64,000 nucleotides of DNA from IMG/VR virus record IMGVR_UViG_3300009716_000001; one strand, 5' to 3'. This document shows positions 9,006-30,600 of this stretch, in pieces. Both the position numbers and the translations under genes were made by a program. Position 1 is the first letter of the stretch; each line of letters opens with the position of its first letter. The notes under the pieces were generated by a model that did not search any database, had not been told where the DNA came from, and saw nothing but the letters and a program-made list of their open reading frames with translations. Source of the stretch: a virus.

Positions 9006-9006
9006 T

Positions 9007-9926: not shown

Positions 9927-10078
9927 TTCTGGGATGTGGCTGGTTCTACGAACTTAGAGTTCTCAGAGAGCCCACCTACGACCACCATATCAACTGTTGG
10001 GTTTATGATGTAAAGCTACAGAAAGCAGGTTTTAAACTGTTAGGAATTACAATTTACACCACAAAAACTATACAATGA
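9923..10078 (+). CDS. small hypothetical protein (51 aa from the ATG at 9923)
   Basis: ATGA start/stop overlaps at both ends (9923-9926 and 10075-10078) suggest translational coupling. The ORF-track start at 9878 would overlap the upstream gene by 49 nt. Confidence 0.4.
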   Translation: MILGCGWFYELRVLREPTYDHHINCWVYDVKLQKAGFKLLGITIYTTKTIQ

Positions 10079-11391: not shown

Positions 11392-14300
11392 TAGCGTTTA
11401 ATATCTTGAGCTTTTTGGAAGTTTGTTATCTGCTGTGCAGGGTCAATGTTAGATGCATTCAATCCGAACATCTTGCCCATATGAGCCCATAACTTCAATC
11501 CGCCTTGGTCTTGCCAAGAGTATGGACCTACGCGTCGCTTATAGTACTGTCCACCTTTATCATCCCAGATATCAATCAAGTCAGAACCCATAGCCTCGTA
11601 AGAGTTAATAGTTGGACCCATCACAAGGGACTTCAGGTCAAGCAGCTGGCTGGCATTCTTGATACCTGGACCAGGTAAGAACTGTTCGTTCTCAGCACGT
11701 ACTTGCATCATCATGTTCATCGCATGTAATGAAAGGAATCCACCTGCATCAAAGTGTTCTCCTGGTTGATAATCACGAGTTCCTGGAATCTGTAAGAATG
11801 AAGAGCGCTCTCTAAGTTTAGCAAAACGTTCTTCATCGTCATCATCCCATCCCCATAATAAGCCAAGAAGTAATCCCATCATATAGATAGAACCAACTTC
11901 CGTAACTAATTTCATCCAAGCTTTTTTATCAGCTTTAGTCATGTTGTTGACATTGCGGGTGCGGAGTAAAGTAAGGAAAGATTTAGCTGCAGATACATAG
12001 TAACCCTCATCAATCTCCCCGTATCCAGGATTCCAACGTTTCTGACCAAAACGGTTCATTGCCATTGTGGTAAAGAATCTACGTAAGAAAGATACAAATC
12101 GGAAAGCCAAATAACGTTGTGCTTCTGGCTGATCAAATTTAGCATAGGCACCATTCAGTTTATTCATTACAGCATGGATACGAGTCTTGAATTTTTTAAA
12201 CTCTTCACCCACTTTCATGTTACCTTCTTCATCGTAAGTGATACCCCAAGTAGGGTCAACTCCAGCTTTCAATTGAATCTTACCGTTCTTGCCAATCTCC
12301 CACACATCCATATAGTCAACCATCTTGCCGTTCATTTCCACCTGTTGCTTGTACATCATACCTGCAAAGGTTTGCATACCCGCTTGAATCTCTACCCACT
12401 TACGGAAGTTAGTAAACCAACCTGTGCTGACAATATCTTTAGCCATTGTACGAGATACGGATGTACCGAACTTCTCATGAAATCGTCCCTGGATTGGGTC
12501 AAATATTTCTCCCAGTTGGTGTTCGAAACTCTTTTGACCTTTCGTATAGGCGTCACCAAAGCTGAGTTTCATCATGTATTTAGATGACCAAGCTTCACCT
12601 TTAGCTAGACTCGTCATTGTTACGTCATCTCCACCGGCAGCGTGAATCATTGCCTGGAACTTAGCGCCTAATGCATTCTTCATAGCAGAAGGGATGTTGA
12701 AAGCAAAGAAGGAGAATGAAGCACGACCAAACAACCCGCGTTGAATGTTCTGAATCATCTTTGAATCTTTACCAAAACCTGTGGTAGTTTCTCCACGAAA
12801 CTCTCTGTTGTAAAGGTTAGAGAATGCATTTCTACGTACATACTTTCCTTTCTTGTTCAGGTAAGTTGTAATACCAAAGTTCACAAAGTTGGACCTGTTG
12901 ATTTTGTCCATCTCTTTTAACTGCTGCTTAGGGTCTTCAAGAATATTCTTGATACCACTTGCAACCGGATTCATTTTCACCAGCTGTTTATGTTGTTCTG
13001 CACCGTATAGGTAACGGAACATACTGTGAATAATATCAGTAGAAGTACGGTTCAAGTCCAAGTTGAATAGTCCCTGGATTGGGATGTTCTCAATCTGATC
13101 GTCGAACGCATCTGCACGCACCAGTTGACTCTCTTGTTCCCAGTTAAAGTTGGTACCTGAGTCAGCTTTAGCTCCTTTAAAGAAATCTCGTATGCTGGCC
13201 AGGAGAGTTCGAATTGTACTTACCTTTTCTTTGGCGCCTTTGATACCCTTCGCCTGTAGCTTTTCTAGACCTTCCATCTCGAAACGCGGGAAGTCAAGAT
13301 ACAACTTACCACGTTTTCCAAGACCCTCCTGCGTTTTAAGCTGATGCTTTGTAACCAGTTCAAGGATTTTGAAAAGCTTGTTCTCCTGAGAACCCTCTGG
13401 AGCATTTTTTAACTTGAAGTACTCTTCATTATAGTAAGGTGAGCCTTGGATTTGTTTTGGTAACCATCCATTGTCACTACCACTGTTGTCACGGTGAACA
13501 CCTACAATAGGTCTTACAGCACCAAAGGTACCGTCCGCATTTTCAATTGAAGGGTCATAACCGGTATAGTATTCTTTCTTTACTACACGGCTGAAGTATT
13601 TAGTTGTAGGAACACCTGGAATGAATTCAGATGTACCATCCTCACGTTTGATTTCAGTAGTCTCATACATGTTCTCGTCATTAGGTTTAATGACATTCCA
13701 CACGTATAAGCGTTCGTATTTAGGAACCTTTACACCAGTCTCTTTATCAAAGATCATTTTCACGGTGTGGTTCTGGTCAAACCATTCTTTAAACTGAGCA
13801 TTTTGATTCAGGAGAGAAAGCACCTTTTCGTCATAAATCTTACCGACAGTGTTCACATCCAGTTCGGTTGTAGCCAACAATTTATAAACTTCAGGGTCAT
13901 TAATCTCATTCAGGAATTGATTAATGGCGTCAACATAATACTCAGTAGGTTCTTTTCTTTGTAGTTCGTTTAACTCAGCAAAGGCTCTGTTAAGAGAAGC
14001 ACGGTCAAACTTACTCAAACCTACGTCGTTTTGTTTATCTAGTAATGCAGTATAGTCACTCCATTCTGCGCTGGTTAATTTTGTTCCACCTTTTTTGGTA
14101 ACGGAGTACGCAATCAGACGGTCCATCTCAGCTGTAGTTAATCCGGAGAAGCCCGCCCATTTAGCTTTAGCATCTTCCATCTTTTGCTGAGCATCCTTTA
14201 CAATTTGTAAACGAGCACCAGGTATTTCATTTCCTACAGGTTGACCATCATCATCACGGTATCCGGAAACAACATCCAAGATTTCAACCCAGCTGTTACT

Positions 14301-17300
14301 GAAGTCAAGTTCATTAGCCTGTGTTGAAGGAAGCTTTGCTAGAATCTCTTTTATACGGGCCAATATTTCAGCACGACGTTCGTAGAATTCTGGTTTAATT
14401 TGAACACGAGTATTCAAGTTAATCCATTCCTTACGGTACGTTTCAAACATTGCTTCGTATTGGTCTTCCCATTCAGACGCCTCAGTTGGGTCAGTAGGTT
14501 TAGAACCAAGCAACTGGGTGATCTTCGCCTCAATCTCTTTTTCAAAGTTAAGTAAGGCATTCTCAAAAGCTCCCTCACGAGGTTTAAACTCGTAGAACTT
14601 TTTCATTTTCTCTTTGTACTCAGTCAAGCGTTCTGCAATGGCTAAGTCATTATTGATGTTATTACGTCCAGGAGCTTTCTCGATGAAGCTGTTTGATGTG
14701 TGTACTACACCTGCATCATCCACATAAGAGTTAGTCTTTTTTGTTCCATCGGCATAATACGATGAATGCAAGAACTTATACTTTTTCCACAGTAAACCTA
14801 ACTGCTCAGTGTTTTTTAATACATCAAACTCATCCATTGCTTTAGATTGAAGCAATCCGATTTCATCCAGAATCTTCTGACGTTCAAAGGCAGCCTGTTC
14901 GCCAAGTTCACCCTCAAGTAATTCTGAAGCTTCATAGTATTCGTCCACATATTTTTGGTGGAACCATTGCTTCATGTGCTTGTTCTTTTCTGCAATCTTT
15001 TTACGTAATGCATCTTTATCCTCTTCCATCCCGCTACGGTTGTAGTTATCTTGAAGAGTTTTTATATCATAGTTGAATTGGTCAATTGTAGCACGGTAGT
15101 TCTTGTTGGCATTCAATAATGTCCATACCTCTTTGGTAACAAACTTCTTTTGTTCCGGGTCAAAGTAACCAATGGTGTCTACAAAACCAATCTTCTTACC
15201 AAGGTCACCAATATTTGTAAAGGTAATACCTGCAGAATCTAGTAAAGGTTTTAATTCAGAAACGATATCGTTGTAACGTGCCTGAACACGAGACTCCATT
15301 TCAATCATGTTATTCTTGAAGTACTTCGCAAAGCCTCCAATTACAGGGTCAGTATTGTAAAGGTATCCTTCCAGGTAAGAGTTAGCCCAGTTAGCATCTT
15401 TACCCTCCCCGCGTAAGGCCGCTTCAATCTTAGTCTTAGTAACGTTGAATCCGTTTAAGGAAAGCTTTTTAAGATTTTCATGCTCACCCATTTCAGCACC
15501 ATTCAGTCTTTGACCACTGTCCAGCTTAGCATTTAATTCTCTCAAGCGAGTAACACCTTCCTCAGGCATACCGTGGAAATCAATGAAAGCTTTATCAATG
15601 ATTGACTTGTTAGCGCCTTGTTTCTTCAGTGTAGCTATTTGCTCATTGAATAATTTTTCTGCTTGCTCAGACATGTCTTTCCATTGGTCCCATAATACAT
15701 CAGTGATACCTGTGGTATTCATAGCATTTATGTGACGAGCGGAGTTCTCCATTGTTCCTTGAATACTGTTCAGTAATGTAGTCATAGGAGAACGAGGATC
15801 TGCACCGGCTTTTTGCATCATGTCTTTTGCCTCAGCAATATATTTTTGCCAGTAGTTTAATACATGGGAATAGTAATATGCTTTGTGAACCATATCTCGG
15901 TGATTCTCTTCTTCCTCCTGAGTAGTAGGAGTCTTTTGAGCCTCAGCCTGTAGTTTATTAAGATGAGCTTCCATCTTCTTCATCATCACTTCCAGACGAA
16001 GAATACTGGTAACTAAAGCAGTTCCTTCATTACGAGTACGGTCTACATCTTCAGCAAGCTCTTCCATTTTAGCCTGAAGTTGTTTAGCGTATTTAGCTAC
16101 ATTAGAACGCATCTCCTGTAAGTCACCACGGTTATAGTCATCCACAAATAACTCAAGCATCTCACGGTAGTTACGGTTCTTCATCAACATTTCAATTTGT
16201 TGAGCAGCTCCTTCGTACATCTTACGAGATAGGTCAGTTAAATGTTGTGCACCGGCCGTTTCTGTTGCGGCATTTAAGTCATCCAGGTATGCACTGAAGT
16301 CATCACTGTAAGCGACAACATCCTTATCAGAAACAGCATTAGTATCAATCTCAAACTGGTTACCTTTTACAAGCATCTCAGCTAGTTCATCCAAAGTTGT
16401 GTTACCATCTAATTTGGCTACGTCAACCTTTTTACCGAATGTCCCTCTTAAGATTTGCTTAATCGCATACAGGAGCTCATCAATGAACTTCTGGAATGGA
16501 CCCATCAGTTGTACGTTGTTTGATTTGATCACAGCGGCTACCGTTAAAGAGCGTACTAATATCTCTTCACCCACAATATTTTGATACTTAGCAGCTAGTT
16601 CAGCTGCACGTCTTGGGTCAGACTCCTGCTCAAATGCTTTAAGTAAATCCGCATACTCAGCTTGTACCTCTTCCAAAATTTTTGGAGCGGAGGCAATAGC
16701 CTTGTTAACTAGTTTTTGAAATAATGGAGGGTTTTGCTGTTGAATACTACGAATAAGCGGATGAGAAAACTCATGGAATGCTAATTGTGTATTAAGCTTA
16801 CTACCTACAAAGTAAACAGTATCCCCATAGAAGAATGCAGAACCTTTAGTTGCATTGTAGGGGTTCTCCGACTCTGCAGTAATACGGGCTGCTTCTTCAG
16901 GAGAAACAACCTGAAACCCAACTCCTAATTGCTCAGAAAGTTTGGTAGCTAGTTCTATACCACGAGTGTTACTATTTGAGGTAACGTCCAACTCAATCAA
17001 GTTAACATCGCTAGTCAAAGCCGCATTCCCGTACAGGGAGTTAGGGTCAGTGAACAAGGTTGTGTCATTTGATTTGCTCAGGATAATCTTTTCCTGTCTA
17101 TCCATCTCAGCTTGAATTGCTTCAGCTGACTTAGGTGTTGACCTTTTAGATAGCTTTTCTATAACAAGTTCAGGAGTAAGTACAGGGCGACCATCGATTT
17201 CCGCCTCCATAAATTCTCTCATTGCCTCAAGTTTACCTAACTCGGGATGCTGTTCTAAGGCATCCCATTGAGCTTTGATTTGAGGGTCGCTAAGATTTGG

Positions 17301-17312
17301 ACATATTTTCAT
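11391..17312 (-). CDS. giant virion cargo/ejection-type protein (1973 aa): N-terminal HExxH zincin module, C-terminal hydrophobic region
   Basis: HEFSH lies at aa 180-184 (16761-16775) and GEEILVRSL about 65 aa later. The middle is long, charged and helical-looking. The C-terminal third has several hydrophobic segments, including VGSIYMMGLLLGLLWGW (11847-11897) followed by DDDDEE. There is a 1-nt stop/start overlap with the next gene. Confidence 0.55.
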   Translation of the reverse strand: MKICPNLSDPQIKAQWDALEQHPELGKLEAMREFMEAEIDGRPVLTPELVIEKLSKRSTPKSAEAIQAEMDRQEKIILSKSNDTTLFTDPNSLYGNAALTSDVNLIELDVTSNSNTRGIELATKLSEQLGVGFQVVSPEEAARITAESENPYNATKGSAFFYGDTVYFVGSKLNTQLAFHEFSHPLIRSIQQQNPPLFQKLVNKAIASAPKILEEVQAEYADLLKAFEQESDPRRAAELAAKYQNIVGEEILVRSLTVAAVIKSNNVQLMGPFQKFIDELLYAIKQILRGTFGKKVDVAKLDGNTTLDELAEMLVKGNQFEIDTNAVSDKDVVAYSDDFSAYLDDLNAATETAGAQHLTDLSRKMYEGAAQQIEMLMKNRNYREMLELFVDDYNRGDLQEMRSNVAKYAKQLQAKMEELAEDVDRTRNEGTALVTSILRLEVMMKKMEAHLNKLQAEAQKTPTTQEEEENHRDMVHKAYYYSHVLNYWQKYIAEAKDMMQKAGADPRSPMTTLLNSIQGTMENSARHINAMNTTGITDVLWDQWKDMSEQAEKLFNEQIATLKKQGANKSIIDKAFIDFHGMPEEGVTRLRELNAKLDSGQRLNGAEMGEHENLKKLSLNGFNVTKTKIEAALRGEGKDANWANSYLEGYLYNTDPVIGGFAKYFKNNMIEMESRVQARYNDIVSELKPLLDSAGITFTNIGDLGKKIGFVDTIGYFDPEQKKFVTKEVWTLLNANKNYRATIDQFNYDIKTLQDNYNRSGMEEDKDALRKKIAEKNKHMKQWFHQKYVDEYYEASELLEGELGEQAAFERQKILDEIGLLQSKAMDEFDVLKNTEQLGLLWKKYKFLHSSYYADGTKKTNSYVDDAGVVHTSNSFIEKAPGRNNINNDLAIAERLTEYKEKMKKFYEFKPREGAFENALLNFEKEIEAKITQLLGSKPTDPTEASEWEDQYEAMFETYRKEWINLNTRVQIKPEFYERRAEILARIKEILAKLPSTQANELDFSNSWVEILDVVSGYRDDDGQPVGNEIPGARLQIVKDAQQKMEDAKAKWAGFSGLTTAEMDRLIAYSVTKKGGTKLTSAEWSDYTALLDKQNDVGLSKFDRASLNRAFAELNELQRKEPTEYYVDAINQFLNEINDPEVYKLLATTELDVNTVGKIYDEKVLSLLNQNAQFKEWFDQNHTVKMIFDKETGVKVPKYERLYVWNVIKPNDENMYETTEIKREDGTSEFIPGVPTTKYFSRVVKKEYYTGYDPSIENADGTFGAVRPIVGVHRDNSGSDNGWLPKQIQGSPYYNEEYFKLKNAPEGSQENKLFKILELVTKHQLKTQEGLGKRGKLYLDFPRFEMEGLEKLQAKGIKGAKEKVSTIRTLLASIRDFFKGAKADSGTNFNWEQESQLVRADAFDDQIENIPIQGLFNLDLNRTSTDIIHSMFRYLYGAEQHKQLVKMNPVASGIKNILEDPKQQLKEMDKINRSNFVNFGITTYLNKKGKYVRRNAFSNLYNREFRGETTTGFGKDSKMIQNIQRGLFGRASFSFFAFNIPSAMKNALGAKFQAMIHAAGGDDVTMTSLAKGEAWSSKYMMKLSFGDAYTKGQKSFEHQLGEIFDPIQGRFHEKFGTSVSRTMAKDIVSTGWFTNFRKWVEIQAGMQTFAGMMYKQQVEMNGKMVDYMDVWEIGKNGKIQLKAGVDPTWGITYDEEGNMKVGEEFKKFKTRIHAVMNKLNGAYAKFDQPEAQRYLAFRFVSFLRRFFTTMAMNRFGQKRWNPGYGEIDEGYYVSAAKSFLTLLRTRNVNNMTKADKKAWMKLVTEVGSIYMMGLLLGLLWGWDDDDEERFAKLRERSSFLQIPGTRDYQPGEHFDAGGFLSLHAMNMMMQVRAENEQFLPGPGIKNASQLLDLKSLVMGPTINSYEAMGSDLIDIWDDKGGQYYKRRVGPYSWQDQGGLKLWAHMGKMFGLNASNIDPAQQITNFQKAQDIKR

Positions 17313-17323
17313 CTTTATACTAA

Positions 17324-20300
17324 TTACGCTTTAAAACAAAAACTAAGGGCGTCTAACACATCTAAGTCTGTAACCTCTGCATTAGCTTGCAGTACATTGG
17401 CTTGCTTAGTAAAACCAAGCGCCTTGTCAAAATTAGGGTTCACAAACTTAAAATTATCCCAAAGCTGTTGAGACAAATATACGAAAGCTGCGGGAGCTAT
17501 TGGCACAATTTTATCATCTTTTAGTTCACCCGTAACATCATCTGCTCCAATCATGTATTGACCGAAACCTGCTTTAGGAAAAGCAATCTTTTTACCTTGG
17601 GCTTGATAGTCTTTAAGCGTAGATATAGCAGAGTCAATTTGCTGTTTTAAAGCAGGATTGATTACTGTAGAATTGATAGGTGCCGGCTGGTTTCCAGTTT
17701 GAGTCTTTCCTGTAGAGGCAATTCCGTTTGCTCCTTCAACCGGTTGTTGACCATCTGGTAAAATATCAGCTTTATTCATCTGACCATCTTTACCTGCACG
17801 GAATGTATTTCTTGTAGGTAATCCTACAACGTTTCCTTGCTTGATACCATAAAGAGCAGCTTCGTTTTTATCTGCACCACCATCTAGCATTTTACCATCA
17901 GGAGACTGAGCAACACCATTGATGGCAAATATCACATCCGGATTTTTATTGGAAGCGATAGTAGCTCCAACACGACCGATACCGTGAGCATCGAATATCA
18001 TATTACCTTGTGCATCTTCAGTAAACTTAACTTCAGGTGCAGCTGTCGTAGTAGCCTTTTCTTTTAATGCCGCCTTAATCATGTCTTTAACATCTTTAAC
18101 TGAAGCTTGCCCGTAACCGCTACGTTCGTAGTCTGCATTCAGGTCATAGTTGTTAATAGTATAATCTCTCATACGGCTACGAGATCTACGGTCAGAATTT
18201 ACCTGGATGAACTTTTTCCAATAACGTTCAAGCGTGACATTATTAATCTTACTAGAGAATTCCGGAATGTATAAAGTCATTAGGTCAGTGAACTTCTCCT
18301 GAGGCACCAAGCGTATTAATGAATACATCCCTTTAGTGTTCATACCAGATTGTAAGAAAGCATATATAGTAAAGCGATTGAAGAAATCTGTTACACGTTG
18401 TCTTTCAACAGCGGATTCTGTATTAAGCTCAATCTTATGTGGGTCAGATAAGGCCAACAAGTTCTGGTGGAATATGTTTATCTTTTCAGGGTCATCAATC
18501 ATAGAGTCATTCAGCATTATGTTTGCTGTACGGCTGCTACCTCTTTCCATTACGTTAGCTGATAAAGCACCTACTAAGCTGTACTTATCTGCAAGTTCTG
18601 GATACATGATTTGTATCTGCGTAAGTTGATCGGCCATTGATTCTCTGCTTCTAAACATCTTAGCCGCATTGAATGTATTGTCCATAGCCATATCACGTAG
18701 CATTTCTTCAAATACTATTTGATTTACACGAGCTTCAAAATGAGCATCAGTTTCATCAGCTTCTTTTGCTAAGCTTGCATTGTACATTTCAAGTTTAGCT
18801 TGTACATCAGCTCTTTCTTTCATAACGTCCCACTTACCTTTCCATTGGTCACGTAATATTTCACGTTCAAACACAAACGAGTAGTAAGTATCAGCTGTTT
18901 CAAAATCAGTAGCTTTAACAGGAGCTACAGATATAACGGTACCATCTGCTAATGTAACATTGTATTTGTATTTCTTAAGAGCTAAAGCTTGATAGTCTTT
19001 TTCTAGTTGAGCCTTGTCCATATAGATGACACCATCCTTAACAAATACAGCATGACGTAAACTAGTTAAAGACTTCACTTCTTTACCCTCAGACTTGATG
19101 TCCATACCACGGTAAACCTTATCGTTGATATTGAACTTGCGTATTGAGTTTTGGAAAATAAAGCTAGTTAAGTCATTGCGTAATTCATTAACCATTTTTT
19201 CAGCATCACCGAATGTAGCGTCCTTAGCATCATTGAACTCGTTAAGGTCTTTCATTTTATCCATGATGAATGTATTCAACACAGGATTGTTTCTCAACTT
19301 GAATAGGTCTTGCCATAATTCAACTTGGAAATCTTGAACATTGAAACTACCGATAGGTGATTCAGTTAAGATAGCATCAATCATTGCTGAAGGGAACATA
19401 CGTTCTTCTCTTAAGTCAGCTAACAACTGAGACTTTCTTTGTGCATCAAACAACGTTGCAGAACGGCTAGTATCAAAGTTAGTGTTCATTTTAACTTTGG
19501 TCATAACCTTTGACATCTCTTCCAGTTCAAGGAAGTGTAAGAAGATTGCTCTATCTACATTGTCCCACATTCCGGATTTGTTTTCAATTCGGCCATACAA
19601 GTTATTGGCAACTTCTTTTGGATTGAAGAATGCTTTAACTTCAGGTGATTGATAGTAATCACGAGTCAACTGGTCAAACTTCTCATCTCTTTCTTTGGCT
19701 TTTCCTCCAAGCTTTTTAGTTGTGTCTTTATCAAACAATTCTTCAAACATCACACGACGTGCAGCGTTTCTGAAGAACATTGGATTCTTATCACCTTTAC
19801 CCAGAGTCTTAGCAAACATACTCTTTGCTAACTTTTGTTCCTCAACGTATTTACGGATTAGTGGATGTGATACCATGTAAACTGCTTGGTCTACTGGAAC
19901 ACCCGCCTGTACCATAAATAACAACGTTGGTGATACCTCTTTGTTACCTTGGATGTTGAATATCCAAGCATCCTTAGCAATATCCACCCAACCATTAATA
20001 AGCTGTGCAACTACTGAAGAAATGCTTGTTTGTCCAGTTGCATCATACAAGTTAGCTAATGAGATAACTTTGTTACCTGACTCATCGTTAACACGGTTGT
20101 GAGGCAACAATATATTTAAGTCTTTGTAGACACCACCTGTTGTAGTATAACCTTTGTTCATACGCATACCGATACGGTTGAATACCGTATTGTATGTGTT
20201 ATCCACGGCACCTAAACCTAAGGTTTGTTTACCAATATTGTTTGACCCATGCTTGTATAAGTTGTATTGAATTTCAAATACACGCGTACCTGCAATTACT

Positions 20301-23300
20301 TTCGAAGACTCTCCACGGAAACGTGCTTTCGGTTTATACGCCATTACTTTATCAGCCAGATCATCAGCCAAAGGTTTAATTAAGTCAGTATCATTTGGAC
20401 GTACTAAACTGGCATAGTTGTCTTTAAGAGCTAGCATATCTCTCATGTTTTTCAAGATACGATTCTCAAGACCTTCTTCAGTTGTAGTATCCATAGGAAG
20501 GGTTACTTCTTTAGGATAGTAGTTGTAGATATGGTCAAAGATGTTTTGCTCTTCCTCGGTTCTGTCCTTTTTCTTTTTCTCAAGGATTGCTTTAAGCTCA
20601 TCTTCCGTCTTGTTATGGAAGTCTCCAAACATCTTGAAGTCAATATCCTTAAGGTTAGTCTTAGCTTTAATGGTAGGGAACATGAATGTAATCTTATCGA
20701 TGTCAAAGTCACCACCCGACTTAGCAACTATCTCAGAAGGAAGAACAACGATGTTACCCGCTTGTTCAGGTAAGAACTCATAAACCTCAGCAAACTCCAT
20801 AGAGTTATTCTCCTGGGTTGGGATACGAGGACCAGTGATACTCACCATGTCTCTATGCTGTCCTTTATTAAGCCACTCTTCACTCTTAAGCATTTCATTT
20901 AAGCGCTCAAGTGAATCAATCTTTTGACCATCATTGTGTAGTAATTCATAAAGCTTACGGAAGTCTCCTTGCATTGCAATTTTAACTTTCATAGCTTTAG
21001 TCTTTCCATCTTCTCCACGAGTATAGAATGGTAATTCATTTGTACCATACTTGATTCTTTCTTCTTCAGAAAGCTCCCCGCGTAAGTTAGTTTCCCAACC
21101 TGCACCAGATACCTGGATTAAACCTTCACCTTTAAACTTTTGTTTTACAAGGCGCTTTACTACGATAGCATTTAAAATCTTCTCAAGCTTTTCAGAAGAA
21201 AGAGAGATTGAAAGGTCATGCGCTAATCCGGTACCACCTTTCTTAGTTTTAAGAAACGCAATTTCATGCTCGCCTAATTCTTGACGAGAAAGCTCACCTT
21301 GGATGAACTCAATCAGCTTTTTGTCTATCTGTACTACACGTTTTCCATCAACGGTTTTGTACTGGATATTAGCTTCTTTGATAAGAGCCTCTTTCTTGAT
21401 TTTGGTTAGCTTGGCAATGTTTGCTTCATAACGCTTGATCAAGTTGTAGTATGGAGACTTTTCAAACTTCTCGTCTTTAGTAAGTTTCTCCCACTCAGCT
21501 TGTCTTTCTGGTAATGGTAAGTCACTTCTGAAATCAGTAGGAACTCCGCCTTCCATCAGACCGTTTTCAATAAGCTTACGCATCTGAGTAGGGAATGTTA
21601 CTTTCTCCTTAAAGTGAGGAGCTATCTCCAACTGGTTCTTTAAGAATTGTAAGTAAACAGTGTTAGGAGTAAGAGTAGAAGTTTCATCAACCTCACGTCC
21701 TTTAGAGTATAACACATCTTGTATTTTGTTTCCCTCTTCATCAATCTTTGTTAGGGTAGAGATTTTTGAACCTGATTTGAATACAGCATAATCAATACCC
21801 TGCTTCATTAATTTATCATGAAGCTTTTCAAGGTTCGTACCCTTGATGACATTTGGAATAAGCGGGAATAATGAGAACTTGTGAAACGCCATCGTAGGTA
21901 AGAAACCTGATTGGTCTTTCACAAATTGCCCGTTTTCGTTTTTACGATTCTCAACTGGACCCCAGTATTGGTACTTCTTAGTTGGGAAGAACTCCATGGC
22001 ATCATCCATTGAGATACTTTCTCCAGCACAGATAGCTTGATACATTTTCTCTTGCTTACCTGTCCACTTACCTTCCATAATAGAAGCTGAACGATAAAAG
22101 TCAAATGTAATCCAACCTTGTGCATCACCCTCATTCATTTCAGTATAAGCTTTTACAGCTTTGTCAATCTTCTCTTCAAGTTCTTTTGCAGACAAACCTT
22201 TGTTCTTTGCAGTGATACGTTCAGCAATTGCCTGGCGTATCTCTTTGAAATATGCAGAAGGAATCTCATTGTCTTTTAAGATAGCTGTTTGGAATGAGCC
22301 ATCGGTAGCAAGTTGCTTCTCAGTAAACCCTTTTGAAGCAGCATATTTTCTACCTTGTTTATTCACATAGTTAACCATAGCGTTATCCACTGCAAATAGG
22401 TTACCAGTTGAACCGGCACCCGCGTTACGCTTATGGAACTCTTCTTTCTTCATGTTATATTGAGCAATGTCACCATAAACAATGTTCATTGACTCAATGT
22501 TGTGTATCCAACTGTTCACTACAAAAGAACGCACCATGGCATCTTCTGTAAGAGTTAAAGCTTTATTAGCAAAACTGTTTGCAACCGGACCAGTAACATA
22601 TCCTGCTTTAGCAGCTTCTGTTTTAATACGGGCCGATAATGTTTTATCAATGAAGTGGTTCTTTTGGAAAACCTCTTTCACATTGTTGAACTGATTGTCC
22701 AAATACTCAATAATTTCAGCTCTTACTTTTTCTAAGTTTTCTGGAACAACATTTACTAAGCTCTTATCCTTAAGTAAAGCTGCTTGAGTAGCTGGAGTTA
22801 AGATGTCTTCGAAGATTACAAACTTACGACCCTCTTTCAAGTAATGCTCATCATAAACAACATCACCTTTTTTAGTCAGCTCTTTAATCTCATTAAGTTT
22901 TTGGATACGCTTCATTTCTGCATCTAGATAATTCATCATCATGTCTGCAGCTTTATTGTATCCAATTACATCGCCTTGTTCTGTTTTGAAGAAGCTAATG
23001 GTATCAACATATCCGCCAGTCTTAGCACCTCCTACAATGTTTTGTAACCATAAAGAGAATGAAGTTCCTTTATCCGCATGACGCATCAATTCTGGCTTAC
23101 CATTAAGAGTCATATGGAAATCCATAATCATCTTAGTGAACTCATCAGCACTTGCAGAAGCAATACCATCAGTACCACTCTCGCTTGTCATTTGAACACC
23201 ACTTAAGTTGGACATATTCAACTTAACTAAGTTGCCGCTAGCATCACGACGCTTTCTTCCGAATGCCGGGTCATTAGTTGCAAGAGGTCTACCTAAAGCA

Positions 23301-26300
23301 TCTTTCATTTCAAAGATGGAATTTAACCACAGAGACGATGCCGCAAACGGATTGATATTTATATCAAGATATCTCATGTGAGGAATAGCCATTAAGTCTT
23401 GGTAAGACTCTGCACTATTAATCGTTGACACCATGATACTCATACTGTTGTGTAAGCTCAATTCATATTGAGTATTTCCCTCAGCATTGGTTTGAGCATA
23501 ATTAGATGTATGGTCACTATGCTTGTTCTCCAGATCAGCTAAAGCTGTTAAGTTAGCGTTGTCACTAGCTAATCCTAAATCTTCATACTCTTTAAACACA
23601 TCATCTAATGAATATACACGTTTTATGTTATTCTTAGAAAGTGTTTTCAGTCTTGTTAATATTACAGCAGGATTTCCAACATTGCTATTAACTGCAGTAT
23701 TTATAACCGGTTTATCACTTAGTAATACACCGATAGCTCTCAAGAAACCAGGAGCATCTTTAAGCTTACCTTTAGTATCTGTGAAATCAGCAATCACGGC
23801 ATCAACATCTAAGTAATTCATGTTGAATGTAGGGTTTTGTTTTCCCTCAGGTGTTGCCTCATTCATATCACGAAGAATGTAATCCGTATTCATTGTACGG
23901 AAAGCATTTCTCCATAGGTTACCTGTTCTACGAGAACTTGAATTAGCTTGACCAATAGTCATTTTATAGCTTGAAGAAACTACACCATTGTCTTCACGAG
24001 TTGTTTCTTCAACCGTCATTTGAATTAACGGAATACTAACCATGTTGAAGGTAGCCCAGAACTTTTGCCATAATGCAGTATCAGCTTCTGATTGTGTATC
24101 CACTGGTCCAAGTTTATCTAATAACTCAGATATAGTTGGGTCAATTATACGAGTCACTTCACCTGCAGCATTTCTCTCATGAGCGGCTTTATCTAAAGCT
24201 TTCCACATATCCGGTCTGCTCATGATACCATTTAAGGTACGAGCAATCTTATTCCATACCACATGGGTATCTGCTAACTCATGAATACCTATAACGTTTT
24301 TTACCGGTAAACCGTTTTTATCAAAGCGGTGAATACTGCGTAACAGATATTTTACTTCAGGAGAAGACAAGTCGTATTGACTGGTTTCATTTCCGGAGCG
24401 GTCAAAACCTTGACCACGCGCTTCCTCGTTTTGTTTTACCTCATCAATTTCGCTGTCATCAAACAATGATTCCTTATCCTGTTCTGATAAGTACTTAGAC
24501 TTAAGTACATGGTAAGCAATAAGACCTTTATTGTCTTTGTTGTTAGCAAGGTTCTCAATATCACCAAAGTTTGGACCAGTAGCCCATTCTAAAGTGTTAA
24601 TGCTTTGCTGAAGTATATTTCGCTTGTAAGCTGTTTTTGGATCTTCACCAGATAACTCATCACGTTCTTTAATGAGTTTGTCTTTAGTTTTGATAAGTTC
24701 TTGAAGAACGGTTCTGTAAACAGACTTTCTATTCTCAGGTGTACTCATTAATTGAGTTACATAAGACCTGTCACCTTTTGATTTTGAAACAAACGTTGCA
24801 AACTTAGAGATGATAGAGTCCATTGAGTTCACCAACATGTTGGCATTCTGCAAGTCAATTACCTGGCTACTGCTGTTTTTATCACGAGCTTGTAAGCTGT
24901 TTAATACACCTATTGATTTGTCACGGTTGTTAACGTCAAAGTTATACTTAGACAAATCACCAACACGTAGGTTTTCATACATCTCAAATATAGGTCCATA
25001 ACTCAGCGGGTTTTGAATTAAATCTGCTGCAGGTACTTGGTGTATTGTAAATAGGGCTTTTAAGAAATCAAGTATTTGTTTAAATATAGAACGTGTTCCT
25101 GGAGAACCTTTTATCATCTTTTTACCACCGGATATCATGAACTCTCTAAATTCTTCTGCTAAGAACTCTTCAAGTTGCCATACATCAGCACTTTTAAAAG
25201 AGACAGTATTTCCATTGTAGTCTACAAATGAGCCAGAACGATTGCGTGCTTCAGCATATAATGTTTTACGTTGGTCAGCCGTAAGGAAAGTTTGTGTAAA
25301 ACCGTGCCATGCTTCATGATATAAATCAGTGAAGTCACCACTTTTTGATGCATCAAACTTACCATCCTCAGAGTAATAATGGAATAAACGGATACCATGA
25401 ATTGACCATTGAGCAACTGGACCAATACCTTGGTTCACTGCTCTGAACACAGTTTCAAAAGGAAAGTGCTTCTTCAATGGACTATTGTTGTACCAAATCT
25501 CAGCTTGTTTTATTTGATGTGCTAAAACAGCAGAGTTCAATTCTTTTTGAGGAAGTCTTTTATCCATCGTAAAGCCTGCAGCCAATTCATCCAAATCAGC
25601 ATTAGATTGTGTAGCCGCTGTATTGGTTGGTTCTTTTTTCTCTACAGGTTCTTGTGATTTTTCAACTTGCTCTTGAACTTTTGCACCAGGTATGAACTTA
25701 GTAAACTCCTCTAGCGTAGGAGCAAAAGTCATTACAGGATTAAATGCTACAACTTTATTGTTAGCATCAACCTTTGCGATAGTTGCATAGTTATCTCTTA
25801 TGAAATTATTATAAGGCATTGGAGTAATTGTCAACACACCGTTGTTGATAGTTGGCATTTCCAATACACCATTGATCAAGTTTCCTACCACGTCTACGTG
25901 TGGGAAATTGATTTTGTAAAAGTCTCCTTTGTCGTCTTCTAAAACATTATTGGTGTTAACTTGACCCTCTAATGTTTTAACGGGTACTACACCTTCCTTA
26001 GCTAAGTTCTCTCGTTTAAGAGGAACCTTAGCACCTTTGCTTGGAGTGGTAAATGCTTTTTGTAAAGCCTCAGCTAATTTATTTCTGTTAGCTGTTCCGC
26101 TTTCAGTATAGTCAAAGCTGTAACGTACACCATTAATATCCACACGGAATTGACCATTCTCATGTGTAAAGCCTCCGTCTTTAGTGTTTGGTACAAAACG
26201 GATATTGCTATACTTAGCTAATAAGAACTGTTGAATAAGTGCATTCCTCCTTAGAATATCAACAGGCTTACCATTCTCTGTTAATGGTTGAGTGAATAAA

Positions 26301-27637
26301 GAGATAAGCTGATTCATAAGTTCAGGCATATCTTTCACAGAAGGTTTATCAATGTTGATAGGCTCACTAATTCCAGGAGCATAGAAATATGCACCACCCA
26401 TTGGTAAGTTCATACCTAACTCTTCTTTCTTAACAGAGATTGGAGAAAACGTATTCTCACCAAAGATTTGTTTAAGCGGAGTCGGGTTATATTGATTGTT
26501 GATAACAAACCCTTTTGAAGAACCTGTAATAACAGCTTGAACTGAATTACCTTTTTCTTCTACATATTGACGCATCCATTCGAATGCTTCAAAGTCTCTT
26601 GTTAAATTATCAAGTGCCTCCATTTCAGCTTCAACTTCAGTCATACCCGCATCTCTGTACTGACGTACTAAAGCATTGTATTTGGTCATAACTGTGTTAT
26701 AGAAAGAAGCTGCATTCTTTTTCTTTTGCCAGTCTTTCATTGTACTATACTCAGGACTGGCCATCACATGATCCATGAAAGCTTTCTGATTCAAATCAAG
26801 AATCATAGTTCCTCCTGCATTTACTTTGAAAGGAACAGGGCTGTATAGTTTAAACCATGAAGCACCTTTACCATTTGTAATAGCTTTACCGGTACCATCA
26901 AATGATACAGGTTCACCCCATGAGCTGGTAAGAACAGCTACCATACCTTTATCAGCATGGGTATAACTTGGACGACCTGCAAGTTTATTAGCTTCACCTG
27001 CTGGCATAATCTTTAAAAATACAGGACCTACACCAGGTACATTTACTTGTGAGCTATCAGAGACACCTTGCTTTTCCATCAGTTCTCTAATGGTTTTAAT
27101 AGCTGCAATGTTTAGTACATTCTCTTTTACAACCTCTCCTGTTTCAGTTATCTCTGGTCCATAGGTATAGAATGCACCAAATGGTAACGTTTTCCATGGT
27201 TCAGCTTTTTCTTGCTGTTTTTCTTCAGACTCAATTACGGGTTCAGGAGCAACCTCGGTTTTAATATCCTGTTCCACCGCATCAATAATCTCAGCTGGTG
27301 ATTCAGTTAAACCAAGAACTTCTCTTACTTTATCGATACTACGGAAAGCTTTTTTCTTTGCAAGAACTTCCATACGGATGTCTTCATTGAATTTTTCAAA
27401 GTGCTCTTCTAACTTTGGTCTATTAGCTAATGTCTGGTCAACAAAACCAGGTACCAGCATTGCGGCATCTAATGCTAAAGCTTCATTCCCTTGAGAAGAA
27501 ATTTTAGCAAAGTTATACACCTCCCTGATATACGCATCAAGGTCAAGAGGCTCGTCGCCTTTTGCTTTTGTAAATAAATCAGAGGCTACCATTACGAATA
27601 GCCCATCTCGCATTTCCTGGTTTAATAAACAGCTCAT
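17324..27637 (-). CDS. giant protein (3437 aa) with beta-prime-like DPBB catalytic loop: candidate virion RNA polymerase, plus HExxH module
   Basis: ITGPRIPTQ...NIVVLPSEIVAKSGGDFDIDKITFMFP places DFDID at aa 2310-2314 (20696-20710). FKSGSKIS lies at aa 1953-1960 (21758-21781). HEAWH lies at aa 774-778 (25304-25318) with LEEFLAEEF 45 aa later. The C-terminal DVIFAING...GGAD...KIAFPKAGFG is macro-like. Confidence 0.55.
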   Translation of the reverse strand: MSCLLNQEMRDGLFVMVASDLFTKAKGDEPLDLDAYIREVYNFAKISSQGNEALALDAAMLVPGFVDQTLANRPKLEEHFEKFNEDIRMEVLAKKKAFRSIDKVREVLGLTESPAEIIDAVEQDIKTEVAPEPVIESEEKQQEKAEPWKTLPFGAFYTYGPEITETGEVVKENVLNIAAIKTIRELMEKQGVSDSSQVNVPGVGPVFLKIMPAGEANKLAGRPSYTHADKGMVAVLTSSWGEPVSFDGTGKAITNGKGASWFKLYSPVPFKVNAGGTMILDLNQKAFMDHVMASPEYSTMKDWQKKKNAASFYNTVMTKYNALVRQYRDAGMTEVEAEMEALDNLTRDFEAFEWMRQYVEEKGNSVQAVITGSSKGFVINNQYNPTPLKQIFGENTFSPISVKKEELGMNLPMGGAYFYAPGISEPINIDKPSVKDMPELMNQLISLFTQPLTENGKPVDILRRNALIQQFLLAKYSNIRFVPNTKDGGFTHENGQFRVDINGVRYSFDYTESGTANRNKLAEALQKAFTTPSKGAKVPLKRENLAKEGVVPVKTLEGQVNTNNVLEDDKGDFYKINFPHVDVVGNLINGVLEMPTINNGVLTITPMPYNNFIRDNYATIAKVDANNKVVAFNPVMTFAPTLEEFTKFIPGAKVQEQVEKSQEPVEKKEPTNTAATQSNADLDELAAGFTMDKRLPQKELNSAVLAHQIKQAEIWYNNSPLKKHFPFETVFRAVNQGIGPVAQWSIHGIRLFHYYSEDGKFDASKSGDFTDLYHEAWHGFTQTFLTADQRKTLYAEARNRSGSFVDYNGNTVSFKSADVWQLEEFLAEEFREFMISGGKKMIKGSPGTRSIFKQILDFLKALFTIHQVPAADLIQNPLSYGPIFEMYENLRVGDLSKYNFDVNNRDKSIGVLNSLQARDKNSSSQVIDLQNANMLVNSMDSIISKFATFVSKSKGDRSYVTQLMSTPENRKSVYRTVLQELIKTKDKLIKERDELSGEDPKTAYKRNILQQSINTLEWATGPNFGDIENLANNKDNKGLIAYHVLKSKYLSEQDKESLFDDSEIDEVKQNEEARGQGFDRSGNETSQYDLSSPEVKYLLRSIHRFDKNGLPVKNVIGIHELADTHVVWNKIARTLNGIMSRPDMWKALDKAAHERNAAGEVTRIIDPTISELLDKLGPVDTQSEADTALWQKFWATFNMVSIPLIQMTVEETTREDNGVVSSSYKMTIGQANSSSRRTGNLWRNAFRTMNTDYILRDMNEATPEGKQNPTFNMNYLDVDAVIADFTDTKGKLKDAPGFLRAIGVLLSDKPVINTAVNSNVGNPAVILTRLKTLSKNNIKRVYSLDDVFKEYEDLGLASDNANLTALADLENKHSDHTSNYAQTNAEGNTQYELSLHNSMSIMVSTINSAESYQDLMAIPHMRYLDININPFAASSLWLNSIFEMKDALGRPLATNDPAFGRKRRDASGNLVKLNMSNLSGVQMTSESGTDGIASASADEFTKMIMDFHMTLNGKPELMRHADKGTSFSLWLQNIVGGAKTGGYVDTISFFKTEQGDVIGYNKAADMMMNYLDAEMKRIQKLNEIKELTKKGDVVYDEHYLKEGRKFVIFEDILTPATQAALLKDKSLVNVVPENLEKVRAEIIEYLDNQFNNVKEVFQKNHFIDKTLSARIKTEAAKAGYVTGPVANSFANKALTLTEDAMVRSFVVNSWIHNIESMNIVYGDIAQYNMKKEEFHKRNAGAGSTGNLFAVDNAMVNYVNKQGRKYAASKGFTEKQLATDGSFQTAILKDNEIPSAYFKEIRQAIAERITAKNKGLSAKELEEKIDKAVKAYTEMNEGDAQGWITFDFYRSASIMEGKWTGKQEKMYQAICAGESISMDDAMEFFPTKKYQYWGPVENRKNENGQFVKDQSGFLPTMAFHKFSLFPLIPNVIKGTNLEKLHDKLMKQGIDYAVFKSGSKISTLTKIDEEGNKIQDVLYSKGREVDETSTLTPNTVYLQFLKNQLEIAPHFKEKVTFPTQMRKLIENGLMEGGVPTDFRSDLPLPERQAEWEKLTKDEKFEKSPYYNLIKRYEANIAKLTKIKKEALIKEANIQYKTVDGKRVVQIDKKLIEFIQGELSRQELGEHEIAFLKTKKGGTGLAHDLSISLSSEKLEKILNAIVVKRLVKQKFKGEGLIQVSGAGWETNLRGELSEEERIKYGTNELPFYTRGEDGKTKAMKVKIAMQGDFRKLYELLHNDGQKIDSLERLNEMLKSEEWLNKGQHRDMVSITGPRIPTQENNSMEFAEVYEFLPEQAGNIVVLPSEIVAKSGGDFDIDKITFMFPTIKAKTNLKDIDFKMFGDFHNKTEDELKAILEKKKKDRTEEEQNIFDHIYNYYPKEVTLPMDTTTEEGLENRILKNMRDMLALKDNYASLVRPNDTDLIKPLADDLADKVMAYKPKARFRGESSKVIAGTRVFEIQYNLYKHGSNNIGKQTLGLGAVDNTYNTVFNRIGMRMNKGYTTTGGVYKDLNILLPHNRVNDESGNKVISLANLYDATGQTSISSVVAQLINGWVDIAKDAWIFNIQGNKEVSPTLLFMVQAGVPVDQAVYMVSHPLIRKYVEEQKLAKSMFAKTLGKGDKNPMFFRNAARRVMFEELFDKDTTKKLGGKAKERDEKFDQLTRDYYQSPEVKAFFNPKEVANNLYGRIENKSGMWDNVDRAIFLHFLELEEMSKVMTKVKMNTNFDTSRSATLFDAQRKSQLLADLREERMFPSAMIDAILTESPIGSFNVQDFQVELWQDLFKLRNNPVLNTFIMDKMKDLNEFNDAKDATFGDAEKMVNELRNDLTSFIFQNSIRKFNINDKVYRGMDIKSEGKEVKSLTSLRHAVFVKDGVIYMDKAQLEKDYQALALKKYKYNVTLADGTVISVAPVKATDFETADTYYSFVFEREILRDQWKGKWDVMKERADVQAKLEMYNASLAKEADETDAHFEARVNQIVFEEMLRDMAMDNTFNAAKMFRSRESMADQLTQIQIMYPELADKYSLVGALSANVMERGSSRTANIMLNDSMIDDPEKINIFHQNLLALSDPHKIELNTESAVERQRVTDFFNRFTIYAFLQSGMNTKGMYSLIRLVPQEKFTDLMTLYIPEFSSKINNVTLERYWKKFIQVNSDRRSRSRMRDYTINNYDLNADYERSGYGQASVKDVKDMIKAALKEKATTTAAPEVKFTEDAQGNMIFDAHGIGRVGATIASNKNPDVIFAINGVAQSPDGKMLDGGADKNEAALYGIKQGNVVGLPTRNTFRAGKDGQMNKADILPDGQQPVEGANGIASTGKTQTGNQPAPINSTVINPALKQQIDSAISTLKDYQAQGKKIAFPKAGFGQYMIGADDVTGELKDDKIVPIAPAAFVYLSQQLWDNFKFVNPNFDKALGFTKQANVLQANAEVTDLDVLDALSFCFKA

Positions 27638-27645: not shown

Positions 27646-30600
27646 TTATCTTTTACAAGTACTAAATAAACTAGCCGCAGCATTTTTAGCTTCAGCGTTA
27701 TCAACGGTTTCAGCGTTGTTCAGAATCTCATTGGTTTCGTCAGCTGATCTTTCTTTTTCAGCTACAAGAGTTTCTGCTGATTCTTGTTTTTCCTCTGGAG
27801 TCGGTTCAGGTGTTTGTTCTACCATTTCTTTAAATTCACTGTTTTTAATCCATATGTAATTTTTAACTTCCTCTTTCGGCACTGGGATAACTCCCTCTTC
27901 ATTAATGCTTTCAGACCTTTTAACCCATTCCCCTTCAGGACTAAGTTTAAAGTTTTCCTTAAACATTTTGTATGGCATTAAAGATACAGTTTTACCATCA
28001 TTCTTCGACACAACAGCCACAGATTTTTTATCTGAAAGTATAACTACGGTACCCATCTGCAGAGTGTTGAAATCTAAATTCTCAGCAAGAGCTTTTACTT
28101 TATCTGTTAATTGGCGCATAGCAAATTCTGGAGTAAAGGGCTCTCCGAATTCTTTCTCGAAAGCATCTAGGTCACCCATCTGTAAGAAAGCTGCAGCATT
28201 ATTTTCCCATGCTTTTATCTCTTCAGCATTAGTGATTTCTGTATATTGTTCCATAAGAGCTTTTGGAGTAATAACTTCCTGACCCTCTTTTACTTCTTCA
28301 ACTGGTTTAGCTTTAGCTTTGTTGGCATCAATCTTAGCTTTTTCCTTGGCTGCGATTTCTTCGTCCTGAATCTTCTTTAGTAAACTTTCTATCTCAGGCG
28401 TTTTTGCTTGGAAGATTGCTTGTTCACGTTCGCTAAGTGCTTTTGAACCAGCAGCACGATATTTATCCACAATTAACTTTAAAGTTAAGTCTGATACGGT
28501 ACCCGTGTTTACGAAATCTTGCCATTCGTCATTGCTGATTACCTCACGTTTTCCTTTAGTGGTTGTTGTGGTTGCTTTTCCTCCTGGAATACCTTTGTTC
28601 TCTTTTTCCATCTGAGCGTTAAACTCATTGATAGGGTGAAGAGTACTGCCGGATTTTAACATGAAGTCTTGGAAGTCCTCCCTGTTTGTGATTTCGTCAT
28701 CACTTAAATCCTTAACAGCCTCTTTATCCTTAGTCCACTTACGGTATCCGTCAGCTAGTTTAGCAATTAATTCAGCGTGCGGCTTAGAAGTTAAAGCAAG
28801 AGTTTTTATTTGACCAATTGGAGTAGATTGAGAAACCTTATCTCCAGCCTTTAAAACACCTTGAACTTTTTCTTGAGCTTTAGCTGTTGGGCGATTGTCA
28901 ATCTTAGCGGTAATAATGTGCATAGCCTCATCCAATAATGATGAACCTTTTTGCACACCAAAAATTCTTTGGATATATTTAGCCACTGATTTTAGGAACT
29001 CATTCCATAAGTTACTTGGCTTACCGGTACTTGTGTATGGAATACGACTAAGCATTCTTTGGAAAGTATCGTTTGTCAATGCCTCTGAAATAAACTCCGC
29101 CTCATTCTTTAATCCATATAAAGGCTTATCACCAAACTTAGCTTTTCCTTCAGGAGAAAGCTGATACGCCATCGCTGTGGATAACATCTTAGTAATAGCT
29201 TCTTTGAACTCTGGGTCAGTCTCAAGCCCTTCTACAGTTAATGCATGAAGTAACTCGTGCAAGATAACATGTTCAACCGGATGACCGTTTTGTCCCTTCT
29301 GATAATCTTCTGAAGAGTAACGAGCATCAACTATTGTTTCTTTAGTATCTGACTTATAAACACCAGGGCCTGAATAGTCAGCTGCAAAAGTAATTACCTG
29401 ACCAGGTTTTACTACTGCAAGCAATCGTCTTGCTAAAGCTTTTTCTCGGTTAGTAGCAAACTCACTGTCCACAATAGACTTTAAAACTTTCTCTACAGCT
29501 ACGGTTGACCTAACACTTGATGGATCAAATCCGAACTGCTTGGCAAGGTCTCTATAAGTTCTCCTGTCATCTTTCCCAACACCGCCAGCAGTTGGTCTGA
29601 ACTTGGGTCTTGCCGTTGCGTTATAGTTCTCCATAGAGCGAGACTCTTCATCACTACCCGCTTCTGGAGTAGCTTTATCCTTAACCATCTGTCCAGCTTC
29701 CTGTGCGTATTTATCAATGATATCAACAGCCTGCCTGTATTTAGGGTCAGACGTTGATAATAAACTTTTATCTGCAACATTGTAAAAATCGGTTACACTG
29801 AAGTTCTTCAGACGTTCTACTTCTTCTGGTAATACAAATAAACCTAAGTCAAATATTTCATTCAACATTTGGTTCTGTAAAGCCATAGCCTTGAACTTTT
29901 CTAAAGCCTTATTAAGGCGTTCAAGCTTCTGCTCACGCTGAGACTTCTGTATGTCTTTTTGAATTTCCTTGTAACGGTCAAACATGTTAGGGTCGCTAAA
30001 TTTATTAATAGCGTGAACCATTCTTTGTTTATCCGCATTTAAAGCCATGAAGTCTTTTAACAGACTAAAGCCTTTATTCATTTGTTCTGTGAACACAAAT
30101 CCATTCTTAGTCTTAGCCACATGACGTACGTACTTATCAAAGGTTTTATACATCTGTGCTACTAAGAAATCTGCATTCTTTTGAGTAGCGGCAATCTCTT
30201 CCGGTGTAGCTCCTGGCTTTCCTAAGTTTTTTAATTCAGCTGCATAGGTATGAGCGAATACTCTCCACTCTTTTAAGTGACGCATTGAATCGATTGCTTC
30301 TTTAGCTTTCTTTCTTTCCTCAGCTGTTCCTTTTGAGAACACTTTTATTTGGTCACCCAAGCTTTGCATATGTTTACTTAGAAGAACAGGGTCAACCAAT
30401 AAACTTATATCGGTACCAATAACATCTGCCAGAGGAGAACCTGCAGAAGATGTATTGAAGAAATTAGATAAAGCTCCGTTACCGGATAACTCATTACCCA
30501 TCTTAGCCATACGGTCTGCAATATTTGAGTAACTTTCGTTAGCAAATATCATATCAGACAAGGCTTGTTCGTGGGCCATGTATTTATCTAATTCATCTTT

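Follow-up and report, generated by a model that had tools for sequence, protein, structure and literature searches.

A giant crAss-like phage protein with a probable virion-type two-barrel RNA polymerase core and additional N- and C-terminal modules

The polymerase core of a 3437-residue protein

The 64,000-nucleotide viral sequence IMGVR_UViG_3300009716_000001 (the window, meaning the whole stretch analysed) carries on its minus strand an open reading frame (ORF) at 17324..27637 that starts with ATG and encodes 3437 residues, exactly as delimited in an earlier reading made from the letters alone (the sequence-only reading). The protein comprises an N-terminal region with an HExxH domain of the type found in gp47 of Bacteroides phage crAss001, an RNA polymerase (RNAP) body and a DUF7831-type end; all positions given within it lie on the minus strand. 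Its sole D-x-D-x-D motif is DFDID at residues 2310-2314, the codons of which lie at 20696..20710 as previously placed, and the HExxH motif, likewise read correctly at residue 774, is HEAWH at residues 774-778 (25304..25318). The candidate lysine loop of a first barrel, DYAVFKSGSKISTLTK, occupies residues 1949-1964 (21746..21793), 361 residues upstream of DFDID. The sequence-only reading had recognised this loop with a small offset, at 21758-21781 inside the true interval and about 355 residues from DFDID; the string MVSITGPRIPT...FMFP that it assigned to the second barrel is present as well, and spans residues 2264-2321 rather than 2255-2325.

A phmmer search of all PDB sequences returns a single significant match for the ORF, 6VR4, the virion RNAP gp66 of Cellulophaga phage phi14:2 (E=3.5e-18). 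The alignment falls into three co-linear stretches: ORF residues 1774-1972 with gp66 922-1096, residues 2267-2395 with gp66 1332-1449, where KSGGDFDIDKITFMFP stands opposite KTGSDFDIDKMYVMLP, and residues 2520-2601 with gp66 1593-1675. The catalytic GGDFDIDK of the ORF aligns residue for residue with GSDFDIDK of gp66, placing DFDID opposite gp66 1361-1365. The DFDID and lysine-loop segments both lie within significant gp66 alignments, and both are conserved across 115 homologues; these motifs are not chance resemblances. A tblastn search with the ORF against 50,697 phage records matches 58, all of them crAss-like and 22-26% identical, including the crAss001 'putative RNA polymerase' and phi14:2 g066, annotated as 'Catalytic RNA polymerase subunit'. 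No near-identical DNA was found by megablast in the phage genome collection.

The relationship becomes clearer at the level of the family. A first set of 45 giant homologues was collected, 25 members of which were built into a family profile in ORF coordinates, and a larger set holds the 115 homologues, each of at least 2,400 residues. The closest homologue is 98% identical to the ORF, and the others range from 64% down to 22%. The profile match to gp66 that the sequence-only reading had called for is found at E=8.4e-110, with ORF 999-2400 corresponding to gp66 152-1440 and ORF 2382-2731 to gp66 1468-1756. The match to crAss001 gp50 is stronger (E=1.2e-164) and covers ORF 946-1420 and 1684-2742. 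On these alignments the central ~1,800 residues are orthologous to phi14:2 gp66 and crAss001 gp50, and the RNAP body can be placed at residues ~950-2740 (19418..24790), opposite gp66 152-1756 and gp50 189-1932.

The profile matches cover the lysine loop and connector as well as the bridge helix and trigger loop, and the functional elements of gp66 have conserved counterparts in the ORF. K1958 (F-K-S-G-S-K), which lies at the end of the first barrel immediately ahead of the connector, stands opposite the lysine of gp66 (DGVK) and of gp50 (STTK), and 80% or more of the family retain it, in line with the earlier proposal of a first-barrel lysine loop. The inter-barrel connector maps to residues 1997-2173 (21119..21649; gp66 1095-1238). 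It is followed by the second-barrel, beta-prime-type segment at residues 2264-2321 (20675..20848), which holds a G-x-R-I-P-x-Q motif and the DFDID that, by homology to gp66, is predicted to bind the catalytic Mg2+. The bridge-helix equivalent lies at residues 2455-2485 (20183..20275; gp66 1529-1559) and the trigger-loop equivalent at residues 2538-2576 (19910..20026; gp66 1598-1636), with a VDIAKD motif that reflects the common VD-x-AKD. Residues 1047-1091 (24365..24499) stand opposite the cleft-blocking domain of gp66 (196-233), a position given by hmmalign only and accompanied by weak conservation.

The catalytic motif itself reads DFDID in 88 of the 115 homologues, DFDVD in 20 and DYDID in 7, so that every member has D[FY]D[IV]D. 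According to the gp66 paper, crass RNAPs carry Ile or Val at the fourth position of this motif, where other RNAPs have Gly; the ORF and all 115 homologues comply with the crass-specific form. One might suppose that the product serves in virion structure or ejection, retaining an RNAP-like fold but no longer able to polymerise RNA, and more than 1,600 of its residues do lack an assignable function. We regard this as barely credible, given that the catalytic triad, the lysine loop and the bridge-helix and trigger-loop motifs are conserved in the ORF and throughout its clade.

The same overall design, with two double-psi beta-barrels in one chain and a DxDxD site, is found in QDE-1 of Neurospora, in YonO and in the tape-measure-protein-fused RNAP of P23-45. 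The gp66 paper describes QDE-1 as the closest structural relative of gp66. At the sequence level, phmmer against PDB sequences finds no match between the ORF and the single-chain RNAPs of the QDE-1 type, and the relationship of the ORF to QDE-1 and YonO is drawn through the published gp66 structure.

Gene neighbourhood and reading of the locus

The ORF is flanked on the minus strand by two further giant genes. The upstream partner (27646..32850, minus strand) encodes 1734 residues with HELLH at residue 1198, and the downstream partner (11391..17312, minus strand) encodes 1973 residues with HEFSH at residue 180. Scans of both with Pfam, PHROGs and NCBIfam models give nothing useful. Part of the upstream protein resembles the HExxH (zincin-like) region of phi14:2 gp65 (E=1.5e-7), and the C-terminal part of the downstream protein resembles crAss001 gp49 (E=1.5e-8). 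Among further minus-strand neighbours, Pfam identifies the crass major capsid protein, ring proteins 1 and 2 and, with PF25731 at E=6e-38, the muzzle protein of crassviruses. The plus strand at 67..10470 holds a divergent module of replication type, which encodes a PD-(D/E)XK nuclease, a MazG-like pyrophosphatase and a protein with a weak match to family-B DNA polymerases. The order of the 1734-, 3437- and 1973-residue proteins followed by divergent genes is that of g067-g066-g065 in phi14:2, a block that is likewise placed beside divergent early genes. Since both the neighbouring genes and their order match, the window is part of a crAss-like phage genome, with the ORF in the cargo block that separates the tail and muzzle genes from the divergent module, at the place where the virion RNAP is expected.

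Of the divergent genes, the small MazG-like one (PRA-PH, PF01503; 10075-10470, plus strand) lies nearest, or almost nearest, to the cargo block. It occupies the same position in two distant relatives (L006:27680-28060 and L007:29470-29847), so this synteny is conserved.

Published work on gp66 offers a functional model for such a protein. It reports that gp66 is present in the phi14:2 virion, that it carries out Mg2+-dependent, rifampicin-resistant RNA synthesis on single-stranded or denatured DNA, that this activity is lost when any of the DFDID aspartates is changed, and that the enzyme transcribes the phi14:2 early genes in vivo. Mass spectrometry has identified the orthologues in crAss001 as virion cargo, and they need to be partially unfolded to pass the tail. 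By analogy with gp66, the capsid would be loaded with the ORF protein and with both of the giant proteins encoded beside it. On infection the ORF protein would be driven through the tail in a partly unfolded state, either before the DNA or at the same time, and would refold in the host to transcribe the divergent early (replication) module at 67..10470. In the refolded enzyme the three DFDID aspartates would hold the catalytic Mg2+, while the first-barrel lysine loop, the bridge helix and the trigger loop would complete the active centre.

We estimate a probability of about 0.9 that the ORF is a variant-architecture member of the crAss-like virion two-barrel RNAP family of gp66 and gp50. The call of the sequence-only reading, a crAss-like virion-type two-barrel RNAP, was right in this central respect, as the 6VR4 match, the gp66 and gp50 profile matches and the gene context bear out. 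Several points weigh in the other direction. Identity to the characterised enzymes is only 22-26%, and no Pfam, PHROGs or NCBIfam model matches the ORF. The two double-psi beta-barrels are predicted from homology to 6VR4, and packaging, injection and early-gene transcription are presumed from analogy. The structural model of the HExxH domain, moreover, recovers no zincin fold in the PDB.

An enzyme of the same type could also be made after infection, as a non-virion RNAP for middle or late genes. There is a precedent in phages such as P23-45, which reportedly encode both virion and non-virion two-barrel RNAPs. The ORF, however, belongs to a tail and cargo operon whose gene order agrees with that of the virion proteins verified by mass spectrometry in phi14:2 and crAss001, and it has in common with its neighbours a cargo-specific cysteine pattern, described below; such a role is therefore very improbable.

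A functional parallel to the virion-delivered enzyme exists in coliphage N4 (Schitoviridae). Its virion RNAP is also giant (~3,500 residues), injected, and encoded with two other ejection proteins, and its C-terminal domain also has an HExxH motif. Its catalytic core is unrelated and has a T7-like single-subunit fold; the resemblance is one of analogy, not homology.

The assignment of the ORF extends the injected two-barrel RNAP of crassviruses to a large unannotated environmental clade which, counted at the level of 50% identity, comprises no fewer than 115 proteins, 2,400-6,000 residues in length. Dozens of unannotated metagenomic proteins have the same architecture as the ORF. The type of enzyme is known; the useful leads lie in its moving boundaries, in an insertion platform at its C-terminus and above all in a rule concerning cysteines at the junctions of cargo proteins.

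The HExxH domain and the C-terminal module

The ORF is considerably larger than gp66 (3437 against 2180 residues, with ~24% identity), and ~950 of the extra residues relative to characterised enzymes are N-terminal. No counterpart of residues 1-627 (25757..27637) was found in gp66 or gp50, and conservation of this region within the clade is weak (11-20% mean identity). The HExxH domain that follows, at residues 628-904 (24926..25756), is absent from gp66. It does have a homologue in crAss001, where the family profile matches the C-terminal end of gp47 (residues 2034-2299, with HEAFH at 2157; E=1.5e-19). In that phage the HExxH domain and the RNAP reside on two proteins encoded on opposite strands, whereas here they form a single chain with ~630 further residues ahead of the HExxH domain. 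By its N-terminus, gp47 is the orthologue of phi14:2 gp67. Since the HExxH domain matches the C-terminus of this protein, the gene boundary is, on the alignments, shifted, and the tail of what is the first cargo protein in crAss001 sits inside the polymerase chain here.

The sequence-only reading had described the fusion of an HExxH module with an RNAP as a combination not known before. The module is borne out by its conserved residues; the claim of novelty was overstated, as the same combination is present in two RefSeq proteins of gut Suoliviridae annotated as 'hypothetical protein', cr1_1 gp_19430 (4551 residues, NC_055873.1) and cr4_1 gp_75527 (4491 residues). Both carry HExxH (around residue 2001) and DFD[VI]D (around residue 3440) in one polypeptide, with the same spacing of ~1,440 residues as in the ORF. 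They differ from the ORF in having ~1,900 residues before HExxH, corresponding to a fused full gp47-like part, in lacking an N-terminal cysteine, and in sequence, with only ~22% identity. First protein and RNAP are likewise combined in one chain in 30 metagenomic homologues, and the gp66 paper mentions phages with fused forms of the three cargo proteins, as well as a zincin-like domain in one of these proteins. In view of the RefSeq chains of cr1_1 and cr4_1 and of these published fusions, the combination of HExxH and RNAP is not new in kind. Boundaries between cargo proteins are mobile, with the HExxH domain at the end of the first protein or within the polymerase. The giant genes of cr4_1 (L010, NC_055893.1) contain 18-38 in-frame stops under the standard bacterial code, which would fit the reassignment of stop codons that has been reported in some crassviruses of the gut.

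The motif is no incidental feature. HExxH is present in 97 of the 115 homologues, HExxE in nine, and the motif is lacking in another nine; in the 106 proteins that have either form, it stands 1,335-1,689 residues (median 1,520) ahead of the catalytic motif. An alignment of 24 diverse sequences shows H774, E775, E824 and F830 to be invariant, with H778 replaced by Glu in some relatives. E824 (25166..25168), 50 residues past the first His, is a candidate third metal ligand. The AlphaFold model of residues 702-913 is of moderate confidence (predicted local distance difference test, pLDDT, 76; predicted template modelling score 0.69) and consists of a hairpin, the HExxH helix and a later helix with E824. 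Foldseek finds nothing significant for it in the PDB (best E=0.27) and no peptidase among the matches, and the sequence profile of the domain retrieves chance matches only from PDB sequences. In BFVD the best matches of the model are segments of other crassvirus giants (E=0.004-0.04). As no zincin is found in the PDB, a protease or cell-wall role of the domain is a guess from the motif, and any catalytic role, be it cargo processing or activation or attack on the cell wall, is presumptive.

Each of the three giants in the window holds one HExxH module: HELLH at residue 1198 of the upstream protein, HEAWH at residue 774 of the ORF and HEFSH at residue 180 of the downstream protein. Each is followed by a similar acidic motif and by a helix resembling I-x-x-F-I-K-x-L-x-G. 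The domain of the ORF and the zincin-like region of phi14:2 gp65 have HExxH, EF-x-x-E and I-x-x-F-I-K-x-L-x-G as co-linear motifs, and hhalign pairs them at E=0.0038 with a probability of just 8.7%; its comparison with the upstream protein is weaker (E=0.22). These patterns suggest that the three modules are paralogous copies, with weak statistics throughout (hhalign E=0.004 to 0.27). A degenerate version of the motif, PEEFAHFAIE, is seen in crAss001 gp49. No phmmer matches link the upstream and downstream proteins to the first 45 homologues; this comparison therefore reveals no homology between the N-terminal extensions of fused relatives and the upstream protein.

These observations bear on a different view of how the protein matures, one compatible with a virion RNAP, in which the ORF encodes a precursor polyprotein that is cut by its HExxH domain, or by the paralogue in a neighbour, after assembly or injection. 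Cleavage would free an N-terminal ejection or cell-wall module and an RNAP of the size of gp66. The gp66 paper itself proposes cleavage of fused cargo and a role of the zincin-like domain in activation; H774, E775 and E824 are invariant, and in crAss001 a gene boundary falls directly after the HExxH domain. Set against this are the failure to recover a protease fold for the domain, the nine homologues with HExxE and the nine without the motif, and the position of the crAss001 gp47/gp50 boundary, at which no conserved cleavage motif is seen and at which fused relatives have neither cysteines nor another evident junction signature. On balance we hold such processing to be unlikely, if a serious contender.

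Beyond the RNAP body, residues 2741-3059 (18461..19417) are conserved in the clade and do not significantly match the C-terminal portion of gp66. The C-terminal module proper, residues 3060-3437 (17327..18460), consists of a helical part and a DUF7831-type alpha/beta domain; a search for it in gp66 and gp50 gives no match. An exhaustive HMMER search with this module yields 438 representatives, nearly all of them the extreme C-termini of proteins of 3,000-5,000 residues. Of 32 aligned relatives, 20 match Pfam DUF7831 (PF25176), at best with E=2.7e-14. The ORF falls short of E<=0.1 for this family and is tied to the matching relatives by phmmer and jackhmmer. In the AlphaFold model of the C-terminus (pLDDT 73.5) the helical part leads into a small alpha/beta domain of the parallel type, split by a disordered loop at residues 3281-3322 (17672..17797) where model confidence is low.

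The sequence-only reading had proposed that this end is macro-like, in which case it might bind or hydrolyse ADP-ribose. By eye, AINGVA..GGAD and IAFPKAGFG do resemble macro motifs, and in P0003, one of the relatives, the module contains an inserted NADAR domain. Macro models in Pfam, however, give no match at E<=1, with DUF7831 matched in the relatives instead. Alignment A3 shows no conservation of the GGAD residues, and Foldseek finds no PDB structure below E=0.8, its weak top matches being dual-specificity phosphatases, with no macro domain among them. We consider the idea wrong and a macro-type domain quite improbable.

The loop at residues 3281-3322 is a hot spot for insertions, and relatives carry up to ~800 extra residues at this site. 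Among the seven inserts in the scanned samples, three are superfamily 1 (SF1) helicases of the RecD/Pif1 type and one is NADAR. Proteins with inserts include P0003, P0050, P0055 and P0133, those of P0050 and P0055 being helicases. The C-terminus of the polymerase is in this way a platform for helicase and NADAR insertions; a built-in SF1 helicase deserves attention because gp66 transcribes only single-stranded DNA in vitro. A Pif1-like helicase is also found at the C-terminus of P0005, and P0042 has a 2OG-Fe(II) oxygenase match and P0040 a PF12694 match at some place along the chain. In another relative, the protein upstream of the RNAP (L006:4346-10000), rather than the RNAP, carries a precomputed DUF7831 match in Pfam, and the module may for this reason occur on more than one cargo protein.

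Cysteines at the junctions of the cargo proteins

Only three of the 3,437 residues of the protein are cysteines: C3 (27629..27631), C1870 and C3434 (17336..17338), the last being the fourth residue from the C-terminus and an invariant column in alignment A3. The sole cysteine of the upstream partner is C1732, third from its end, and that of the downstream partner is C4. In tail and other proteins encoded in the window, cysteine makes up 1-6% of the residues. The ORFs of the tail region (46963-59968) in particular are cysteine-rich (3-6%) compared with the nearly Cys-free cargo proteins, which fits the disulfide-stabilised tail described for crAss001.

This arrangement recurs in other crassviruses. 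In phi14:2 the only cysteines are C1797, the last residue, in gp67, C3 and C2179 in gp66, and C3 in gp65, so that gp66, like the ORF, has a cysteine at residue 3 and another beside the C-terminus. In crAss001 they are C2339 in gp47, C5, C1334 and C2404 in gp50, and C5 in gp49. The first protein of Dulem virus 41 has C2471 alone, its RNAP C4 and C2247 (the last residue) along with three internal cysteines, and its third protein C5 alone. Two metagenomic relatives with split blocks, L006 and L007, have a sole cysteine at or near the C-terminus of the upstream protein, only C3 and a cysteine three residues from the end in the RNAP, and only C3 or C4 in the downstream protein.

Fused versions differ in a consistent manner. 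Proteins in which the first protein is joined to the RNAP have no cysteine at the N-terminus and none at the former junction; many have a single one near the C-terminus, and the proteins downstream of them still start M-x-C. In L004 and L005, for instance, the sole cysteine of the fused protein lies beside the C-terminus and the next protein has only C3, and in cr1_1 and cr4_1 a cysteine four residues from the end of the fused protein is followed by a protein starting MSIIC or MIC. A triple fusion of 5,990 residues (P0019) has no cysteine at all. Across ten crassvirus lineages, in a comparison covering the window plus L001, L002/L003 and L004-L011, every split in the block has a cysteine 1-9 residues from the upstream C-terminus and another at residue 3-5 of the downstream protein. 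In the 116 giants formed by the 115 homologues and the ORF, 114 have a cysteine within the last eight residues, whereas chance would give ~0.5% per protein, since the mean Cys frequency is 0.06%. A cysteine in the first eight residues, most often at position 3, is present in 79 of the 86 non-extended proteins.

Two explanations of this pattern can be set aside. A signal at the nucleotide level is rejected because crAss001 gp47, encoded on the other strand and away from gp50, keeps its C-terminal cysteine. A protease site is rejected as well, as the fused proteins lack cysteine at the junction.

The simplest reading would be that a link between terminal cysteines replaces the peptide bond of the fused forms. 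We tentatively propose, as an idea that could well prove mistaken, that the three cargo proteins are joined head to tail in the virion through their terminal cysteines, by a disulfide or a shared metal. They would then pass through the tail as one chain of ~7,100 residues, always in the same order, and would separate in the reducing cytoplasm. Such a linked chain may equal the polyprotein that other crassviruses make in one piece. Inter-subunit disulfides are known to be numerous in crassvirus virions, and no mention of terminal cargo cysteines was found in the crassvirus literature searched. The pattern thereby offers a testable idea of how three very large proteins could be ordered for ejection.

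A different cysteine pattern is seen in the 1004-residue protein encoded two genes upstream of the RNAP (32853-35867). It has exactly two cysteines, at residues 128 and 134, and its positional counterparts at L006:1647-4340 and L007:1830-5225 have theirs at 128/133 and 128/134, respectively, giving a conserved C-x5-C pair in an otherwise Cys-free protein.

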